From an uncultured Thermotogaceae bacterium (GTDB lineage: Bacteria > Thermotogota > Thermotogae > MWEM01), in NCBI GenBank assembly GCA_964604305.1, contig CAZRYM010000003.1, positions 9,186 through 73,185 on the forward strand: a stretch of DNA of 64,000 bases. Direction: 5' to 3'. Made by a program: the position numbers and the translations under genes. The notes under the pieces were generated by a model, which saw only the letters and a list, made by a program, of their open reading frames with translations, had not been told where the DNA came from and did not search any database. Positions 5,592 through 63,817 of the stretch are shown piece after piece (the first letter of the stretch is position 1; every line of letters starts with the position of its first letter).

Positions 5592-6779
5592 TTATTCTTT
5601 GGTGTTAAATAATACCATCATTGCAGCAAAAACCATGATGATATTCATGACAACGAACATGCTATTAAATGAATAGTTGGCAATAATACCACTAAAAACA
5701 GGCCCTACCATAGCTCCCAATGATCTAACAGAAGTTAATAGACCCATGAACTCGGCTTTTCTTTCCAAAGGACAGTTTAGGGAAATGAACGTGGAGGCAC
5801 CATTGATAAAGGCGCCATATGCCAAACCCAGAGAAAGATACCCTGCTGCCATCAATCGCCAGTCCGATGCAAAAAAGAATAGGATTGGTGTTAGGCTGGA
5901 AAAAAGAATTCCGCCAACCATGGACTTTTTAGGACCGTTTTTGGCTATAATACGACCTGAGAGCAAGTGTGAAATCATTTGAAACATTGGATTAAGAGAA
6001 GACAAGAGTACAGCCACTGAATACGACAACGTTAAATTTTCAGTCATGAAGATCAAAATAGCCGCCATGGTACCGCTAATGCCGAACTGTCTGACAAAGC
6101 TTCCCAAGTAGATAGCCCACAATCCGTTTTTTTTAAGAGGTGTATAGTCAGAGACGATTGGAAATAATCTGTGTAAAAGATTGCTTGATTTTTCTTTTTT
6201 TGTCCTTCTGTTACCTTCTTTGATAAATAGTCCCGTTATGAGGGGAAGCCAAGAGATAAAACAGAATATCATTATGGCCTGTTTCGGACTGTTTTCAATG
6301 AAAAAGTACGCTAAGGCAATTCTTCCAACGAACATCCCAAGAGAAAAGGATGTATTTAACAAAGCTAATTCTCTGGAGTTAGAACGAATATCGTCATCGG
6401 CATATTCCGTTGCCAAAGCCATTGAAATCGGTTGCATTCCCTTTTTAAAAAAGGCTGAAATACCAAGAAAAACCAGGAGGACCAAGGGATTATCACTTAA
6501 GAGAAAAAGAGGAAAACTGATGGCTGTTAAACCTATGGAAAGTAGTAAAAGAGGCTTTCTGTTTTGATGTTCATCTGAAATAGAACCCCACACTGCACCG
6601 GATAGTGTTGACATACCGCCATTGACAGTTGAAATAAGACTAATAACGAATATCGATGCGCCTACTTCCCTAAAACGCGATTGTAAAAGGATATTAAAAG
6701 TGAACGTTACAAGCATGCCGATTGTTGTTGTAATCAATAATGCCATTCTTTTTCTTGTTCTTGAGCTAATTGTGATCAT
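5592..6779 (-). CDS. MFS transporter
   Basis: About 12 TM segments and motif-A-like loops (WGSISDEHQNRK, SGRIIAKNGPKK). Confidence 0.85.
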   Translation of the reverse strand: MITISSRTRKRMALLITTTIGMLVTFTFNILLQSRFREVGASIFVISLISTVNGGMSTLSGAVWGSISDEHQNRKPLLLLSIGLTAISFPLFLLSDNPLVLLVFLGISAFFKKGMQPISMALATEYADDDIRSNSRELALLNTSFSLGMFVGRIALAYFFIENSPKQAIMIFCFISWLPLITGLFIKEGNRRTKKEKSSNLLHRLFPIVSDYTPLKKNGLWAIYLGSFVRQFGISGTMAAILIFMTENLTLSYSVAVLLSSLNPMFQMISHLLSGRIIAKNGPKKSMVGGILFSSLTPILFFFASDWRLMAAGYLSLGLAYGAFINGASTFISLNCPLERKAEFMGLLTSVRSLGAMVGPVFSGIIANYSFNSMFVVMNIIMVFAAMMVLFNTKE

Positions 6780-6865
6780 CCTCGTAGTTAGTCATCCGAA
6801 TTATCAAAACCAGTATACAACAATGATGAGATAATTTCAAATCTCGTTTCTGAGAAAATAATATC

Positions 6866-6880
6866 TGTGATATAATCACA
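6866..6880 (+). promoter_or_regulatory. Extended -10 promoter (TG-A-TATAAT) for the aro leader, embedded in the palindrome TGTGAT-ata-ATCACA
   Basis: TG at 6868-6869 and TATAAT at 6871-6876. The inverted repeat arms are 6866-6871 and 6875-6880. Confidence 0.55.
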
Positions 6881-6962
6881 CAGTAAAAAATGTAGAATGT
6901 TTAAAAAAGAAAAGTTATTAAAAAATATCTCTAAATCTTAATCGTCAATATGTGGTGAAAAA

Positions 6963-7028
6963 ATGAATCAAATTGTCAAAATCAAAAATGCATGTTTTTA
7001 TTATTATAAAAAGGGCAATCATCCGTAG
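6963..7028 (+). CDS. Putative attenuator leader peptide MNQIVKIKNACFYYYKKGNHP (21 aa; not in the ORF track)
   Basis: ATG 6963 preceded by GTGGTGA, control codons TTT TAT TAT TAT at 6996-7007, and stop TAG 7026-7028 inside the first hairpin. It lies directly upstream of DAHP synthase. Confidence 0.8.
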   Translation: MNQIVKIKNACFYYYKKGNHP

Positions 7029-7114
7029 GTAAGCTATTCCGGATGACTGCTCTTTTCAGTTTTTCCGGAGAGTAATTCAAATTCAGGAGTCTCCGGATTG
7101 GAGACTCTTTTTTT
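7009..7114 (+). promoter_or_regulatory. Transcription attenuator with mutually exclusive hairpins and an intrinsic terminator
   Basis: Stem 7009-7025 / 7040-7056. Antiterminator pairing TCCGGA(T)GACT 7038-7048 with AGTCTCCGGA 7088-7097. Terminator GAGTCTCC 7087-7094 / GGAGACTC 7100-7107 followed by T7 at 7108-7114. Confidence 0.8.
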
Positions 7115-7127
7115 ATGGAGGTTTATC

Positions 7128-8132
7128 ATGATCGTAATCCTTAAGAAAAATCACACAGAACAGGATTTGGAGCATATCATCGAAATTACTAAGGAGATGG
7201 GCTTTCAATCTCATGTTTCAAGGGGAACAGAAAAAACGATAATAGGGGTCATTGGAGATGATTCGTATGTAAGTGTTGATCGATTCGAGAATTTACAGTT
7301 TGTGGATAAGGTTGTGAAGGTTCTCAAACCTTATAAACTTGTGTCAAAAGAATTCCACCCTGAAATGACGGTGATTGATGTTGGCTCTGAAAACCTTATT
7401 GGCATGGGGTTCTCCATTATGGCTGGGCCTTGTGCTGTTGAATCCGAGGGGTTGTTGGATGAGGTGGGGGCCTTTTTAAGTGAGCAGGGAGTTCCTTTTT
7501 TAAGAGGTGGGGCTTTTAAACCCAGAACTTCTCCTTATTCCTTTCAAGGTTTGGGCTTGGAGGGGTTGAAGATATTAAAGAGAACAGCTGAAAAATACAA
7601 CCTCAAAGTTGTCACTGAACTCATGTCCGAATCTGAGAGCGATGTGTTGAATGAATACGCTGATATCATTCAAATAGGATCCCGTAATGCCCAGAATTTC
7701 AGATTGCTTGAAAGATGCGGGCACTTTGACAAACCCATTCTTTTAAAGAGGGGCTATATGAACAGAACGGAAGAATTTCTGCAGTCCGCTGAATATATCA
7801 TGGCAAACGGCAATCCTAATGTTATTCTTTGTGAGAGAGGAATTCGAACATTTGAAACGATCACCAGAAACACTCTGGATCTTTCAATTGTCCCATATGT
7901 CAAAGAAGAATCTCATTTGCCAATTATTGTGGATCCCAGCCATGCCACGGGAAAAAGAGAACTGGTACCAGCCATGGTTTACGCTTCCTGGGCGGCAGGT
8001 GCTGACGGTATTATGGTGGAAATTCATCCGAATCCTGAAAGGGCATTATCAGATGGTAGGCAATCGTTGGATTTCAAACAGTTTGAATCCATGAAAAAAA
8101 GACTCAACTGCTTAATACATCAAAGCAATTAA
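7128..8132 (+). CDS. aroF: DAHP synthase, type I-beta with N-terminal regulatory domain
   Basis: AGPCAVES, GGAFKPRTSPYSFQGLG, ILCERGIRTFE, IVDPSHATG, EIHP. ATG 7128 follows SD GGAGG. Confidence 0.95.
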   Translation: MIVILKKNHTEQDLEHIIEITKEMGFQSHVSRGTEKTIIGVIGDDSYVSVDRFENLQFVDKVVKVLKPYKLVSKEFHPEMTVIDVGSENLIGMGFSIMAGPCAVESEGLLDEVGAFLSEQGVPFLRGGAFKPRTSPYSFQGLGLEGLKILKRTAEKYNLKVVTELMSESESDVLNEYADIIQIGSRNAQNFRLLERCGHFDKPILLKRGYMNRTEEFLQSAEYIMANGNPNVILCERGIRTFETITRNTLDLSIVPYVKEESHLPIIVDPSHATGKRELVPAMVYASWAAGADGIMVEIHPNPERALSDGRQSLDFKQFESMKKRLNCLIHQSN

Positions 8133-8146
8133 TAGGGAGGTTCTAT

Positions 8147-8575
8147 ATGAATATACACATCCTTAACGGCCCCAATCTAAATTTATTGGGAAGAAGAAAT
8201 CCTGAACACTACGGAAGGCTTTCATATCCTGAATTGATGAACAATGTAAAAAAATATGCAGAGAAGAAAGGTCTTGAAATTAGTTGTTTCCAGTCTAATC
8301 ATGAAGGTGAAATTATCGATGATATTCATGGAAAACTGGATAAGATAGATGGTTTGATCATCAACCCGGGGGCATTAACTCATTACAGTTACGGCTTAAG
8401 GGACGCACTGGAAATAGTTGAGGTTCCAATTGTGGAAGTGCACCTGTCAAATATTCATGCAAGAGAATCCTTTCGAAATATGAGTGTTATCTCTCCTGTG
8501 AGCACGGGAACGATCTGTGGGTTAGGGATTAACGGGTATTTTTTGGCTCTTAATTATTTTCTCTCTATGAATTGA
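8147..8575 (+). CDS. aroQ: Type II 3-dehydroquinate dehydratase
   Basis: NGPNLNLLGRR.PE.YG, FQSNHEG, INPGALTHYS, EVHLSNIHARE.FR. Confidence 0.95.
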   Translation: MNIHILNGPNLNLLGRRNPEHYGRLSYPELMNNVKKYAEKKGLEISCFQSNHEGEIIDDIHGKLDKIDGLIINPGALTHYSYGLRDALEIVEVPIVEVHLSNIHARESFRNMSVISPVSTGTICGLGINGYFLALNYFLSMN

Positions 8576-8691: not shown

Positions 8692-11196
8692 TTGATTATA
8701 TTGAGTTCTGTTATAACAATATTCTTGATGTACAGTACCTATCAAAATGAAATGAAAAGTATTATGAAAGAAAATCTGGGGAAACTTGAGAGTCAGTATA
8801 AATCCCTTGTCATTCCTTATGAAAATTTCGCAAAATACATCTTTGATCGAGAAATCAATCAGGAATGGATTAAGTCTGAAATAAAAATAGCCGGGGTTGA
8901 TTCACAGAAGAGAGACAGCATAAGGGAAACACTCTATCACTATTATGCTGATTTTTATAGTCTCTTGGAACGGTTCAACTTTAGGCAGCTTCATTTCCAT
9001 CTTCCCGGTGCTATTAGTTTTCTCAGGATGCACAGGCCTGAAAAATACGGGGATGATTTGTCTGATGTAAGACAGTCAATCGTGTTAGCTGAACAAACCG
9101 GAGAATTTGTTAAAGGTTTTGAAGAAGGTAGGATTATAAATGGTTACAGAATGGTTTTCCCCTTGTTCCTTTTAGAAGAATTTATTGGAACAGTCGAGGT
9201 GAGCATATCTTTCAACACAATATGTCAGGATCTGACAAAGGAATTCTGCATGCCTTTTCATTTTGTCATTCATGAAGATGTTGTTCAGGAAAAAGTGTTT
9301 GAATCGGAACAAGATAATTACGTTCAAGCAGGTTTCATTGATGGTTATCTGTATGATCGCGAAGCTTATGAGAAGATCAATTCATTAGCATCCAATTCAG
9401 GCATTCCGTTTGAAGGGATTAATGAAAACCTTTCAGTCAAATATTCGGAAACAAATAGTCAAGGGGAGAGTTTTTCTTTACACACAACGATTGACGGGGT
9501 TGTTTATTCAGCTGTTTTTTTGGAGATCAAAAACTTTAAGGATAAAAATGTTGGATACTTGATTTCCTTTAAAGAAGACAAAAACATCTCGGATGTAATC
9601 AAAAAAACAAGAATAACGATGATTAATGTTATCATTATCTACCTTTTGCTTTCTATCCTGATTTACTACATGTATCGCTCAAGAGAAAATGCCTTAATAG
9701 CAAATAAAGCCAAAAGTGAATTCCTTGCCAATATGAGCCACGAGATTAGGACCCCCATGAATGGAATATTAACGGCAGCCGAAATAATTGAACAGACATC
9801 AAATGAGGACAAGCGAAAAGACTTTTTAAGAATAATCAAGGTTTCAGCTGATTCGCTTTTGCAAATCATCAACGATATCTTGGATTTATCAAAAATAGAG
9901 GCTGGAAAACTCCGGATGGAGGATATTACGTTTGACCTTCATGAAATCCTTGATGATGTGACAAAACTTATCTTCCTTTCAGCATCAAAAAAAGGTTTAG
10001 AAAGTGAGCTAATCGTTGAAGAGAATGTACCTCGTTACATTAAAGGTGATCCTTTACGTTTGAAGCAGATACTTCTTAACCTCTTAAGCAATGCTTTGAA
10101 ATTTACCGAACACGGAAAGATACAAGTTAGGGTAAAAAACGATTATTTAAGGGATGGCAATACGGAAAGAATCAATTTCAGTGTAACAGATACTGGTACA
10201 GGTATTGATGAAGAAAAGAAAAAAATACTCTTTAAAAAATTTTCGCAGGCTGATTCAACCATTACTAGAAAGTTTGGGGGAACGGGGCTGGGACTTGCCA
10301 TCAGTAAAAAACTTGTGGATATGATGAACGGAGAGATAGACTTTAAAAGTGAACCGGGATATGGAACGGAATTCTTTTTCATTATCCCTGTCAAACGATC
10401 AAACCCGGAAGAAATAGCAGAAGTTAAACGCAGTGAAGGAGCATGTTTAAAATCTGATTCTAATATTTCCAGACGCTTGAAAGTGCTTGTAGCAGAGGAT
10501 AATCAAGTCAATCAGACGATAATCAAAGAGATTCTCTCCAGCTTTGGATGGAGATATGATTTGGTTGATAATGGAAATGATGCGGTTGAACGGGCGATTA
10601 AAAATCATTATGATGTCATACTCATGGATGTCATGATGCCAATAATGGATGGGTTGGAGGCTGCAAAAAAAATTAAATCTTCACCTGGTAAAACTGATAT
10701 GCCAATAATCGCATTAACAGCAAGTGTGACTGAAAAAGATATTAAAAAAGTCTTTGAAGCTGGAATGGATGCGTATCTTGCAAAACCTATAAAAATAACG
10801 GAATTAAAGAATACGATAATAAAGCTGGTTGCATCTGAAGGAGATAAAGAATTTGAATTAGATCTGATTGATTTGAATGAAGTAAAAAAGCATATTGATG
10901 ATCTTGATATTTATTACGACACGATTATTCCCATATTTATAACAGATCTTCAACTTAACGTGAAAAAGATGGGAGAAGCTATCAAAAATGGCGATTATCA
11001 AACTTTAGCAAGCCTTTCTCATGCAATAAAACCCGGATGCATGTATGCAGGAGTGATTGGTGTATCTAATATAATTGAAAAAATCGAATTGATGGCCAAA
11101 CAGAATGAAGATATTGAAAAAATCAAACAATTGTATAAGTCTTATCAGGAAGAATCGAAAAAAGTGATTCAACAATTGCAATCACTTTGCAATTAG
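8692..11196 (+). CDS. Hybrid sensor histidine kinase (periplasmic Cache-type sensor, HisKA, HATPase, REC, HPt); start uncertain
   Basis: SFLRMHRPEKYGDDL sensor signature, FLANMSHEIRTPMNG, NLLSNALKFT, DTGTGI, GGTGLGLAI, ILMDVMMP and the HPt-like LSHAIK. Confidence 0.9.
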   Translation: MIILSSVITIFLMYSTYQNEMKSIMKENLGKLESQYKSLVIPYENFAKYIFDREINQEWIKSEIKIAGVDSQKRDSIRETLYHYYADFYSLLERFNFRQLHFHLPGAISFLRMHRPEKYGDDLSDVRQSIVLAEQTGEFVKGFEEGRIINGYRMVFPLFLLEEFIGTVEVSISFNTICQDLTKEFCMPFHFVIHEDVVQEKVFESEQDNYVQAGFIDGYLYDREAYEKINSLASNSGIPFEGINENLSVKYSETNSQGESFSLHTTIDGVVYSAVFLEIKNFKDKNVGYLISFKEDKNISDVIKKTRITMINVIIIYLLLSILIYYMYRSRENALIANKAKSEFLANMSHEIRTPMNGILTAAEIIEQTSNEDKRKDFLRIIKVSADSLLQIINDILDLSKIEAGKLRMEDITFDLHEILDDVTKLIFLSASKKGLESELIVEENVPRYIKGDPLRLKQILLNLLSNALKFTEHGKIQVRVKNDYLRDGNTERINFSVTDTGTGIDEEKKKILFKKFSQADSTITRKFGGTGLGLAISKKLVDMMNGEIDFKSEPGYGTEFFFIIPVKRSNPEEIAEVKRSEGACLKSDSNISRRLKVLVAEDNQVNQTIIKEILSSFGWRYDLVDNGNDAVERAIKNHYDVILMDVMMPIMDGLEAAKKIKSSPGKTDMPIIALTASVTEKDIKKVFEAGMDAYLAKPIKITELKNTIIKLVASEGDKEFELDLIDLNEVKKHIDDLDIYYDTIIPIFITDLQLNVKKMGEAIKNGDYQTLASLSHAIKPGCMYAGVIGVSNIIEKIELMAKQNEDIEKIKQLYKSYQEESKKVIQQLQSLCN

Positions 11197-11319
11197 AAAG
11201 ATGATTAAGAAAAAAAGGAAATGTGGAAATCAGGATCAGTAGTCTGCAAAAATCGAGATTTTTTTTGTGGGAAAGGGAATCGATGTCTTTTGAAAAAACA
11301 ATTTACAGGGAGTGAACTG

Positions 11320-12231
11320 ATGAAAAAACTGATTTATCTTATTTTACCCATACTTGTTTTATTGACCTTACACGAGTATAACGATGTGGTTTATCATTGG
11401 CCGTATTCTATCAAACCAGAGAATCCGGAAGAAGCATATGTAGTCAAAAATATAGACGGCGATACAATAAAAGTTCGTATAAACGGTGATGAAGAGACGA
11501 TTAGGATGATAGGAGTCGATACGCCTGAGACCGTTCATCCCAGCAAACCGGTGGAATTTTACGGAAAAGAAGCAAGTAACTTTACAAAAGCCCTATGTCC
11601 CACAGGTTCCACAGTTTATTTAACATACGATTGGGATCCAAGGGATAAGTACGACAGATTACTGGCATATGTCTGGTATAGACGTGATGAACAATGGATC
11701 ATGCATAATTTGAATCTTATTGTTAATGGGTATGGCCATGCTTACACAGTTTTTTCCTTTGATAAGGATTATATGGAGCTGTTTGTTGAAGCAGAACAAA
11801 AGGCCAGAGAAAAGGGATACGGTCTTTGGCAAGATTACGAAAAGCTTTTTGAAGAATCTAGTAAAAACCAAGCTTTACAGAAACCGGTTGCTACCGGTGA
11901 AAAAGAAACCGCAACACTCGTCATGAGTGAATCTAAAGGGGACTTGGAGATCGCCTACGTACAATATGAAGGAAGCAGTGAATATGTTGAAATCATAAAC
12001 CGTGGCAGTGAAACACAAACATTGAAAGGATATAAACTCATTAGCACGAAGGGTGAAGACGAATTCGTCTTTGAGGACACGATGTTATCTCCGGGAGAAT
12101 CTTTAAAGATCTATTCAGGACCTGAAGCCAAAGATAACGTCTGGACTACCGATTTTATTCATAATAACAGCGGAGACGGTGTGGTCCTGCAAGATGAAGC
12201 ATCAAATATCATTTCTTTCTATTATTGGTAA
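11320..12231 (+). CDS. Exported thermonuclease (SNase) fused to a C-terminal lamin-tail-like domain
   Basis: Hydrophobic N-terminus MKKLIYLILPILVLL, SNase motifs IDGDTI, IRMIGVDTPE and DKYDRLLAYV, and a C-terminal EYVEIIN...L.PGE.LKIYSG...NNSGDGVVL.D. Start moved to ATG 11320 behind SD AGGGAG. Confidence 0.85.
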   Translation: MKKLIYLILPILVLLTLHEYNDVVYHWPYSIKPENPEEAYVVKNIDGDTIKVRINGDEETIRMIGVDTPETVHPSKPVEFYGKEASNFTKALCPTGSTVYLTYDWDPRDKYDRLLAYVWYRRDEQWIMHNLNLIVNGYGHAYTVFSFDKDYMELFVEAEQKAREKGYGLWQDYEKLFEESSKNQALQKPVATGEKETATLVMSESKGDLEIAYVQYEGSSEYVEIINRGSETQTLKGYKLISTKGEDEFVFEDTMLSPGESLKIYSGPEAKDNVWTTDFIHNNSGDGVVLQDEASNIISFYYW

Positions 12232-57903: not shown

Positions 57904-57979
57904 GGGCTCTTAGCTCATCTGGTAGAGCTCTCGGCTCATAACCGAGTGGTGGGAGGTTCGAGTCCTCCAGAGCCCACCA
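57904..57979 (+). tRNA. tRNA with CAT anticodon, most likely tRNA-Ile2 (lysidine); not an initiator
   Basis: Cloverleaf with acceptor GGGCTCT/AGAGCCC, anticodon arm CTCGG-CTCATAA-CCGAG, GTTCGA T-loop and encoded CCA. Position 1:72 is paired and there is no GGG/CCC stem. The CTCATAA loop matches Ile2 tRNAs as recalled. Confidence 0.88.
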
Positions 57980-57989
57980 TGGTAACAAT

Positions 57990-58066
57990 CGGGGTGTGGC
58001 GCAGATTGGGAGCGTGTCAGCATGGGGCGTTGAAGGTCGCTGGTTCAAGTCCAGTCACCCCGACCA
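57990..58066 (+). tRNA. tRNA-Pro(GGG)
   Basis: Acceptor CGGGGTG/CACCCCG, anticodon arm TCAGC-ATGGGGC-GTTGA, TTCAAGT T-loop and encoded CCA. Confidence 0.92.
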
Positions 58067-62306: not shown

Positions 62307-63752
62307 ATGGAGAAAAAAGAAAGACTTACTGGTACTTCCGGAAGTCCGGTACCTGATAATCAAACATCTATAACAGCGGGAGAACGTGGTCCTATTTTAA
62401 TGCAAGACCATTACCTCATTGACAAATTGGCTCACTTTAACCGTGAGCGAATTCCTGAACGGGTAGTGCATGCCAAGGCAGCAGGCGCTCACGGTACTCT
62501 CACTGTAACTCAGGACATCACGAAATATACCAAGGCGAAGATTTTTTCTGAAGTGGGGAAAAAAACCGAGATGTTGGGAAGATTTTCAACTGTTGCTGGA
62601 GAAAAGGGATCTGCGGATACGGTCAGAGATGTCCGGGGTTTTGCTTTAAAATTCTATACGGAAGAAGGAAATTGGGATTTGGTTGGAAACAACACCCCTG
62701 TCTTCTTTATTCGTGATGGTATTAAATTTCCGGATTTCATTCATACACAAAAACGCGATCCTCAGACAAATTGTAAAGATGACACCATGCAGTGGGACTT
62801 TTGGTCACAAGTTCCCGAATCTCTTCATCAGGTGACCATACTGTTTTCTGACCGTGGAATTCCAGCCGGAATTCCTTACATGAACGGTTATGGGAGTCAT
62901 ACCTTCAGCTTTATCAATAGTGAAAATGAGAGGTTCTGGGTAAAATTTCATTTCAAGACTCAACAGGGAATTAAAAATCTATCTCCGGAAGAAGCGGATA
63001 GACTTGCAGGAGAAGATCCTGATTATCATACTATGCAACTGTTCAATGTCATCAATAACGGAGCTTTTCCAAGTTGGAAATTATACGTACAAATCATGCC
63101 GGAAAAAGAAGCTGAAACGTACACTTGGAACCCCTTTGACTTAACAAAGGTTTGGCCGCATAAAGATTATCCCTTAATGGAAGTGGGTATTCTGGAATTG
63201 AATAAAAATCCACAAAACTATTTTGTCGAAGTTGAGCAGGCTGCATTTTCTCCTGCAAATGTTGTTCCTGGCATTTCTTTCTCGCCGGATAAAATGCTTC
63301 AGGCAAGACTCTTTGCCTATGCAGACGCACACAGATATCGTCTTGGTACTAATTATGAGAGGTTACCCATTAACCAACCACATGCTGCAAAAGTGAACAA
63401 TACGTATCAAAGGGATGGAAGCATGAGATATGACGATAACGCCGGCGGAGGTCCCAATTATGAACCAAACAGTTTTGGAGGCCCAAGAGAAGATCCGGCA
63501 TATAAAGAACCCCCGTTGAAGATTTCAGGGAATGCGGATTATTATGAGCAAAAACGCGGTGTAGATGATGATTACATACAACCTGGCAATCTCTTCAGGT
63601 TGATGTCTGCCGAACAACAGTCTTATCTCTTCAAAGCTATTGCCGGTAGCCTAAAGAAAGCTCCAAAAGATATTCAAAAACGGATGTTAAAGCATTTTTA
63701 CAAAGCGGATGATAATTATGGCAAGGGAGTTGAAGAGGCTCTTAATCAGTAA
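62307..63752 (+). CDS. katA: Monofunctional small-subunit heme catalase
   Basis: [14 protein letters not shown] (distal His), [17 protein letters not shown], proximal [16 protein letters not shown] 62307 follows AGGAGG. Confidence 0.96.
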
Positions 63753-63754
63753 AT

Positions 63755-63790
63755 AAAAAAGGACACATCCGTACGGATGTGTCCTTTTTT
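63755..63790. terminator. Perfect 36-bp palindrome, bidirectional terminator
   Basis: AAAAAAGGACACATCCGTACGGATGTGTCCTTTTTT between convergent genes. Confidence 0.85.
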
Positions 63791-63817
63791 ATGTTTTTCA
63801 TGAATTTTCTGATCAAT

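Follow-up and report, generated by a model that had tools for sequence, protein, structure and literature searches.

Two shikimate-pathway genes, aroF and aroQ, lie on a contig of an uncultured Thermotogaceae bacterium (CAZRYM010000003.1), within a stretch of 64,000 nucleotides that was analysed as a whole and is called the window here. They are preceded by an unannotated short open reading frame (ORF) and by a series of complementary RNA segments, which together make up a candidate attenuator sensing tyrosine (Table 1). The product of aroF belongs to the 3-deoxy-D-arabinoheptulosonate-7-phosphate (DAHP) synthases. In Thermotoga maritima, Tyr and, to a lesser degree, Phe inhibit the DAHP synthase by way of its FXD domain. 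The window AroF aligns with this enzyme over the full length (PDB 1rzm/3pg9, E 3.8e-127). The start of aroQ is located 14 nt past the aroF stop codon, and the two genes are probably co-transcribed. Upstream of the ORF, the position of the candidate promoter would place the transcription start near 6883.

A preliminary description of this region had reported a 21-codon ORF with the codons TTT-TAT-TAT-TAT before aroF-aroQ. The ORF was found exactly so, together with a Shine-Dalgarno (SD) sequence, GGTGA, in front of it, and all the elements and pairings listed in that description exist, each at the position given there or within 1 nt of it. The leader stop codon (7026-7028) directly follows RNA segment 1, which lies wholly within the last six sense codons. 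The TATTATTAT block, which contains the control codons, is invariant in the alignments A1, A2 and A4 described below. Within the 64-kb window, the aroF leader is the single short ORF that combines an SD sequence, a residue run and a terminator downstream. Three of the features expected of a leader-peptide attenuator are present in front of aroF: an ORF preceded by an SD sequence, a cluster of codons for pathway products and an intrinsic terminator before the biosynthetic gene.

Table 1. Features of the aroF leader region and the genes downstream, in window positions.
Feature	Positions	Strand	Basis or description
Candidate promoter, extended -10 box TGATATAAT	6868..6876	+	Read from sequence
Leader ORF SD, GGTGA	6954..6958	+	4 nt ahead of the ATG
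Leader ORF, 21 codons, MNQIVKIKNACFYYYKKGNHP followed by a stop codon	6963..7028	+	Start, frame and aromatic run kept in 15 other distinct Thermotogota loci; unannotated
Control codons TTT TAT TAT TAT (Phe-Tyr-Tyr-Tyr), codons 12-15	6996..7007	+	End 1 nt 5' of segment 1
Segment 1, which forms the 5' side of hairpin 1:2 (the protector)	7009..7025	+	Stem prediction, covariation
Segment 2	7038..7056	+	Partner is segment 1 (via 7040-7056) or segment A (via 7039-7049)
Segment A, ending in TCCGGAGA	7057..7071	+	2:A via CAGUU 7057-7061 and UCCGG 7064-7068; A:3 via UCCGGAGA 7064-7071
Segment 3, terminator 5' arm 7086-7094 and loop bases	7086..7097	+	7090-7097 (UCUCCGGA) is the target of segment A
Segment 4, terminator 3' arm 7100-7108, T-run 7108-7114	7100..7114	+	Terminator scan
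aroF SD, GGAGG	7117..7121	+	Read from sequence; 2 nt past the T-run; aroF ATG at 7128
aroF	7128..8132	+	DAHP synthase of type I-beta; its N-terminal regulatory domain is ferredoxin-like (FXD); Pfam DAHP_synth_1 2e-73, DAHP_snth_FXD 9e-23
aroQ	8147..8575	+	Type II 3-dehydroquinate dehydratase; Pfam DHquinase_II 2e-57

The RNA segments are named 1, 2, A, 3 and 4 in 5' to 3' order. The 1:2 stem pairs 7009-7017 with 7048-7056 and 7019-7025 with 7040-7046, which gives 16 bp around one A.C mismatch (-21.7 kcal/mol); the earlier count had been 17 bp. The terminator 3:4 pairs 7086-7094 with 7100-7108, carries the loop GGAUU and a run of seven T (-15.0 kcal/mol), and was the best candidate in the terminator scan. 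The preliminary description had likewise placed a 3:4 terminator with seven T 2 nt before the aroF SD, and it was found there, spanning 7086-7108. A 2:3 pairing can be formed by 7039-7043 with 7092-7096 and 7045-7048 with 7088-7091, leaving U7044 bulged. In segment A, TCCGGAGA (7064-7071) is the perfect complement of TCTCCGGA (7090-7097) in segment 3. The predicted energy of A:3 is -13.3 kcal/mol versus -15.0 kcal/mol for 3:4, and the formation of A:3 uses up the terminator loop and its top 5 bp. The palindrome TCCGGA is present in segments 2, A and 3 of the window (at 7038, 7064 and 7092). The duplex energies of neighbouring segments are 3.4-6.9 standard deviations below those of shuffled sequences. 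Because of these energies, and because the ORF combination is unique in the window, the arrangement goes beyond chance.

The window AroF was used as the query to fetch genome and metagenome loci, and distant Thermotogota were reached by protein search and contig look-ups. The resulting set contains 15 further distinct Thermotogota aroF loci (numbered with L), with AroF identities from 94% down to 60%; the most distant one is from the cultured Thermotoga sp. KOL6 (L164). Conservation of the ORF in relatives had been proposed as a check in the preliminary description, and a short ORF with a Tyr-dominated run was present at the same place in all of the 15 other loci. All 15 full-length leaders, the window included, contain 3-6 consecutive aromatic codons, chiefly for Tyr. 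The run reads YFYYY in L001, L002, L005, L085 and L105, LFYYY in L081, FSFYYYF in L003, FFYYY in L004, YYYF in L161 and L162, YFY in L163 and YYYFWF in KOL6, and it is pure Tyr in L006 (YYYYYY) and L007 (YYYYY). In L086, where the contig is truncated at the 5' end, YHYY is visible. A TGnTATAAT or TATAAT box is found at the equivalent site 5' of the leader ORF in L001-L007, L081, L085, L105 and L161-L164, and this conserved extended -10 box is probably the leader promoter, to judge by sequence and position. Among the full-length orthologues, L163 is the only one whose leader ATG has no SD-like purine block before it. The L163 leader ORF (L163:1332-1397, MKTPNPVQEASSKPENRYFYP followed by a stop codon) begins 6 nt after the TATAAT box without an SD, and its translation may start on a leaderless mRNA.

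The N-terminal residues and the length of the leader ORF vary freely, and TAT, TAC and TTT are swapped within the runs. Beyond the aromatic run, the sole conserved leader residues are those encoded by RNA segment 1. The free N-termini and lengths, the interchangeable codons and the residues kept only over segment 1 therefore point to a regulatory leader peptide and not to a functional peptide. UAC codons occupy the same leader position in high-GC phyla, and by comparison of the sequences what is conserved is the amino acid, not the nucleotides or an RNA motif. In no leader do the control codons reach into segment 1; the distance from their end to its 5' edge is 0-6 nt in all of them. The stop codon lies right after segment 1 in most leaders, in the upper stem in L006 and L007, and after an inserted mini-hairpin in L003 and L004. 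The exception is L163, in which segment 1 is located entirely 3' of the leader stop codon.

With these properties, the proposal of a leader-peptide attenuator with Phe/Tyr control codons before aroF-aroQ was borne out, with Tyr as the main residue, Phe as a frequent addition and the ORF kept in 15/15 relatives. We hold with high confidence that the element is a Tyr-sensing leader-peptide attenuator of some wiring. It most likely senses charged Tyr-tRNA, and secondarily Phe-tRNA, and controls aroF-aroQ.

Similar leaders were found well outside the Thermotogota. The wider survey covered 144 fetched aroF loci with at least 300 nt upstream, many of them from Gemmatimonadaceae, so that they are not independent samples. 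A short aromatic-run ORF together with a terminator-like hairpin was present on the sense strand of 76/144 aroF loci versus 0/144 on the reverse complement, and the longest runs total 267 Tyr, 78 Phe and 3 Trp. Tyr/Phe leaders at FXD-type aroF occur in Gemmatimonadaceae, Clostridia, Treponema (including T. porcinum ATCC BAA-908), Flexilinea, Lentisphaeria, Oscillospiraceae, Peptoniphilaceae and others, and each such group has its own peptide family and a clear terminator; Rfam contains none of these leaders. Judged from these sequences, the window element is one branch of a broad, Tyr-dominated class of leaders before FXD-type aroF. Examples located 150-260 nt upstream of aroF are L009, L010, L012, L031, L038, L042, L044, L045, L048, L050, L075, L076, L079 and L131, besides about 60 further loci. 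Some uncultured Acholeplasmatales carry a T-box instead of a leader peptide at aroF (L013:2725-2955, L024:2722-2965 and L049:2729-2958; 106-129 bits), and these three were the only loci where a T-box was detected before aroF.

The pairing of the segments was compared on alignments and by per-sequence energies. In the MAFFT alignments A1 and A2 the L006 terminator was one column out of register; a covariance model, R1, was built and the sequences were re-aligned as A4 (12 sequences). On A4, the 1:2 and 3:4 stems had 94.6% of cells paired and 9 pairs changed on both sides, and none of 500 shuffles scored as high. Covarying stems in relatives, another check proposed in the preliminary description, were thereby found. 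The terminator stem was 100% paired in the 12 sequences, with 5 pairs changed on both sides. The 2:A helix was 97% paired on A4 versus 38-63% for slid partners, with 2 doubly changed pairs. The CGGAG of segment A was invariant in 12/12 aligned sequences, and each pair of the A:3 core was formed in 9-12 of the 12. The count for the A:3 union helix (68.8%) is understated, as L006 is still off by one column for A:3 in A4, hence the comparison relied on the duplex energy of each sequence.

Duplex energies with shuffle controls were calculated for 14 sequences, deep branches included, with segments defined by hand. The mean z scores of the duplexes were -6.3 for 1:2, -3.9 for 2:A, -3.6 for A:3 and -5.2 for 3:4, whereas non-neighbouring segments stayed at chance (mean -1.2 to +0.3), with 2:3 intermediate (mean -2.5). 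Both 2:A and A:3 were significant in nearly all 14 sequences. Among the 11 close orthologues, the energies ranged from -18 to -33 kcal/mol for 1:2, -8.7 to -16.6 for 2:A, -7.9 to -13.4 for A:3 and -13 to -18 for 3:4. When segment 1 was forced single-stranded, the minimum free energy (MFE) structure was hairpin 2:A plus the terminator, not 2:3, in 11/11 close orthologues.

In KOL6, all four helices are rebuilt from sequence that is different and GC-rich. As a hairpin, 2:A of KOL6 has 14 bp, and its duplex fold has 17 paired positions; A:3 has 12 bp and is more stable than 3:4 (-23.4 versus -20.1 kcal/mol). The combination 1:2 plus A:3 (-57.3 kcal/mol) is nearly isoenergetic with 2:A plus 3:4 (-55.5 kcal/mol), as expected of a two-state switch. 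The KOL6 helices are much longer and GC-richer than those of the window, and their predicted stability at 70-80 °C is about that of the window helices at 37-55 °C. The window helices are predicted to be marginal above about 60 °C, and those of KOL6 to be stable at 70-80 °C. This hints at growth at moderate temperature for the window organism (37% GC), though it falls short of demonstrating it. A weak match of model R1 at window 63744-63810 was considered as a second leader copy and rejected; its source is an ordinary, perfect bidirectional terminator just past a gene end (63748-63792, AAAAAAGGACACATCCGTACGGATGTGTCCTTTTTT).

The helices 1:2, 2:A, A:3 and 3:4 are mutually exclusive between neighbours, and the effect of the ribosome position on them was modelled by masking only. 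The model that we somewhat favour for the switching logic is a relay of five segments (1, 2, A, 3 and 4) rather than the classical four. In this model, built on sequence and predicted folds, A:3 would act as the antiterminator, 2:A as the anti-antiterminator and 1:2 as the protector. When Tyr-tRNA is scarce, the ribosome would be held at the first control codons, 5' of the hairpin, so that 1:2 stays folded and A is free. Free A would pair with segment 3 once it is transcribed, no terminator would form, and RNA polymerase would read into aroF. When Tyr-tRNA is plentiful, the ribosome would run through segment 1 to the stop codon and unzip 1:2. The freed segment 2 would capture A, and this local hairpin 2:A would have a lead of about 25 nt of transcription over the appearance of segment 3. 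The latter would then pair with 4, and transcription would stop at about 7110-7116. An untranslated leader is predicted to give read-through, the opposite of trp-type superattenuation.

This logic follows from parity. With five segments the parity is odd, and therefore an unavailable segment 1 gives 2:A and 3:4 (termination), while a standing 1:2 gives A:3 (read-through). A biosynthetic operon needs read-through on starvation; therefore the stalled ribosome should leave 1:2 intact and the unimpeded ribosome should remove it. Since the stop codon is either within segment 1 or immediately 3' of it (in L163, shortly ahead of it), the terminating ribosome would cover segment 1 and not segment 2. 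By sequence geometry, segment 1 of L163 can be covered by the terminating ribosome only. In masked folds, the ribosome was assumed to occlude the RNA as far as +10 to +13 nt, counted from the first base in the A-site, a reach taken from general bacterial footprints. Before segment 3 is made, the calculated probability that A is sequestered was 0.00-0.39 in 10/13 sequences with the A-site on the first control codon, and 0.62-1.00 with the A-site on the stop codon (+10 offset).

Two further features of the leader may bear on the timing. The U-rich tract on the 3' side of 1:2 (7053-7063) could serve as a pause site that synchronises polymerase and ribosome. Pro-stop ends 11/16 Thermotogota leader peptides (window 7023-7028 and equivalents), and such a context slows peptide release. 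E. coli pheL ends in Pro-stop too. The Pro-stop may have been selected to slow the release of the terminating ribosome, or may merely be a by-product of the stem's CCG; the Pro codon of L163 lies outside the hairpin.

Several results weigh against the five-segment relay. With the A-site on the last control codon, the equilibrium already favours sequestration of A (0.36-0.99), and therefore the model needs stalling early in the run, a need that may explain why runs of 3-6 codons are retained. In L162 and L164, 2:A equals or exceeds 1:2 in stability, and the equilibrium prediction has A sequestered whatever the state; therefore the protector could act there only kinetically. Within the window clade, 2:3 equals A:3 in strength (duplex -16 to -19.5 kcal/mol; 93.5% of cells paired), and in most of this clade the equilibrium folds before segment 4 adopt 2:3 with the ribosome on the stop codon. 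For replete cells to terminate, 2:A therefore has to form first. The window 3:4 is also more stable than A:3 by 1.7-2.5 kcal/mol, so A:3 must likewise win kinetically. Equilibrium folds of the transcript through segment 3, calculated for four masked ribosome positions, did not separate the models in the window clade, as 2:3 or A:3 appeared in every state. All of these energies are nearest-neighbour predictions at 37 °C, and the ribosome reach is an assumed one.

The chief rival is the classical four-segment design of trp/pheA type, the logic given in the preliminary description, in which a ribosome stalled at FYYY masks segment 1, segment 2 is freed and the 2:3 antiterminator blocks the terminator, with A as an accessory. 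The 2:3 helix does exist in the window, where in the local clade it has 9 bp with one bulge (-13.9 kcal/mol long-range, duplex -18.4, z -3.7), and on A4 it shows 3 pairs changed on both sides. Equilibrium folds without segment 4 adopt it once segment 1 is masked, and a ribosome with its A-site at the last Tyr codon melts the lower half of 1:2. The helix is strong only in the window's own clade, however, where TCCGGA is a palindrome and to which it seems tied; it is at chance in L007 (z +0.3) and L163 (-0.1) and weak in L003, L162 and L164. A 2:3 helix in all sequences, as the 93.5% of paired cells on A4 might imply, was rejected, because the "paired" cells of L006 and L007 are scattered G.U without a stable helix. 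Segment A, moreover, sits between segments 2 and 3 and pairs with both, and as free segment 2 pairs with A in the MFE structure of 11/11 sequences, freeing segment 2 should terminate; the masked folds run opposite to the earlier logic. A ribosome stalled at the Tyr codons, which lie 5' of segment 1, reaches only the A/U-rich base of 1:2 and not the upper stem that holds the CCGGA of segment 2, and the terminating ribosome leaves segment 2 uncovered, although the classical model requires it to be covered if replete cells are to terminate. That model also assigns no role to the conserved, covarying 2:A and A:3. The architecture thus departs from the classical one, and we consider this reading doubtful. 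The pairing of the spare TCCGGAGA with segment 3, reported earlier as a possible extra layer, is real, but it belongs to the core of the switch because 2:A and A:3 are significant in nearly all 14 sequences.

Much less probable is an RNA switch that is not driven by the ribosome, with a protein, an uncharged tRNA or a small ligand binding the leader (for example the UAUUAUUAU tract or 1:2) and the ORF incidental. The T-boxes before aroF in the Acholeplasmatales loci L013, L024 and L049 illustrate that tRNA sensing at the RNA level occurs at this gene. However, no Rfam family reached threshold in the window or in 19 related loci, and the start, frame and aromatic run are kept in 16/16 Thermotogota leaders despite whole-codon indels and TAT/TAC/TTT/TGG substitutions. 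The SD in all full-length Thermotogota leaders but L163, the same residues encoded by different nucleotides in other phyla, and the strand bias of the aromatic-run ORFs (76/144 sense versus none on the reverse complement) also speak against this reading. Least probable of all is a functional micropeptide, or an effect on aroF translation only (coupling or SD masking), without regulated termination. The T-run ending just 2 nt before the aroF SD would suit such an effect, and this spacing differs in L006, L007, L162 and L164; with the terminator about 50 nt from the aroF SD in L006 and L007, SD masking is impossible there. The canonical GC-rich stem and T-run are conserved and covarying, and outside the aromatic run the peptide is conserved only where its codons form segment 1.

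Returning to the five-segment relay, its relation to known attenuators was considered. In the classical trp/pheA design (Yanofsky model), the control codons are part of segment 1, which the stalled ribosome masks, the antiterminator is 2:3, and an untranslated leader terminates. Like E. coli trpL and pheL, the window element has a leader peptide, end-product codons, alternative hairpins and an intrinsic terminator; unlike them, its codons lie just 5' of segment 1 and the extra segment A inverts the parity. The his leader of Salmonella and E. coli is also a chain of more than four segments (A:B, C:D, E:F versus B:C, D:E) that relays the state of the first helix to the terminator. That leader has six segments and even parity, and masking its first segment leads to read-through, whereas masking the first segment should terminate with the odd parity of five segments.

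No Rfam leader family (Trp, Phe, His, Leu, Thr or leu-phe) matched at its gathering threshold in the region, in the whole window or in 19 related loci, and the T-box (RF00230) had no match in the window. RF01743, the leu/phe leader of Lactococcus and likewise a leader-peptide attenuator, was, at a permissive threshold, the sole leader family with even a weak match in the window (6959-7110); it was rejected, as 17 bits versus a gathering value of 70 (E = 6.7) is at chance level.

The preliminary description did not recognise a mainly Tyr-sensing attenuator at the first shikimate step of a probable Thermotogota as described, but the kind is known from Corynebacterium glutamicum aroR, Acholeplasma uORFC-13-1 and the F/Y uORFs (upstream ORFs). 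The aroR leader (Phe-Tyr-Phe) before aroF was studied experimentally (Neshat et al. 2014, as cited in PMC11802643; first seen in PMC4046766). In the account of PMC11802643, a stalled ribosome raises transcription of the operon, and the response is to limitation of Phe, not of Tyr. It resembles the window element in that a gene for a DAHP synthase is preceded by an attenuator and a short ORF containing aromatic codons. The enzyme, however, is of another class, a relative of the E. coli isozymes without FXD (PMC9529685); the aroR motif is Phe-dominated, whereas the Thermotogota run is Tyr-dominated with five RNA segments, and the two have no sequence relationship. The uORFC-13-1 motif is a uORF plus terminator with Phe codons upstream of Acholeplasma aroF (Brewer et al. 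2021, PMC8632094), and F/Y uORF candidates adjoin shikimate genes (Stav et al. 2019, PMC6429828). Compared by description, layout and gene context, both share with the window a promoter, a ribosome-binding site, an aromatic short ORF and a terminator at aroF, with proposed sensing of the speed of amino-acid incorporation; they differ in having a U run that encodes at least one Phe and in occurring in Mollicutes or other genomes. Rfam 15 has no model for uORFC-13-1 or the F/Y uORF motifs.

The literature searched gave no description of Tyr leaders or of leader-peptide attenuation in Thermotogota. For TM0343 it gave unrelated papers only, and Naville & Gautheret 2010 does not mention aroF. The element would differ from the known leaders in its Tyr dominance, its FXD-type, Tyr/Phe-inhibited DAHP synthase and its five-segment, odd-parity wiring. 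The full claim is that an odd-parity five-segment attenuator, in which arrival at the stop codon triggers 2:A and an untranslated leader gives read-through, is Thermotogota-wide and is a branch of a largely undescribed Tyr-dominated class at FXD-type aroF in at least six phyla; taken as a whole, we regard it as evenly poised.

The genes downstream of the leader differ among the Thermotogota. KOL6 has aroF-tyrA-aroA and L162 has aroF-aroA-aroC under the leader. In L161 and L163, a second, shorter DAHP_synth_1 protein without FXD is encoded directly 3' of aroF (L161:2486-3337, L163:2526-3344), and a chorismate mutase-prephenate dehydratase gene comes next. Upstream in the window, a divergent promoter-like site (TTGAAA-17-TATACT, 6811-6840, minus strand) lies before an MFS transporter gene (5592-6779, minus strand) and overlaps the block CAGTATACAACAATG, which is kept in L001, L002, L005, L006 and L007; L161 has this MFS gene as its divergent neighbour too. 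On the 3' side of aroQ are genes for a hybrid histidine kinase (8692-11196; dCache_3, HisKA, HATPase_c, receiver and weak Hpt domains) and for a protein with SNase and lamin-tail domains (11221-12231), both probably in transcription units separate from aroF-aroQ. The sole Rfam matches at gathering level in the window are neighbouring tRNA-Met(CAT) and tRNA-Pro(GGG) at 57904-58066.

The region thus adds an unannotated regulatory gene and an RNA switch at the entry step of aromatic amino-acid synthesis, in a phylum for which no description of leader-peptide attenuation was found, and it points to the charging of Tyr-tRNA, rather than of Phe- or Trp-tRNA, as the main signal. If this is true, one end product controls the entry of the pathway at two levels, by sensing of Tyr-tRNA and by allosteric Tyr/Phe inhibition of the enzyme. 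If confirmed, the five-segment wiring would extend the design rules of attenuators, with the elongating and not the stalled ribosome causing termination, and different outcomes would be expected for start-codon and antiterminator mutants. The element was missed by Rfam and by gene callers, and a covariance or peptide model would improve annotation widely (76/144 loci). Cultured Thermotoga carry the element, which makes direct testing feasible.

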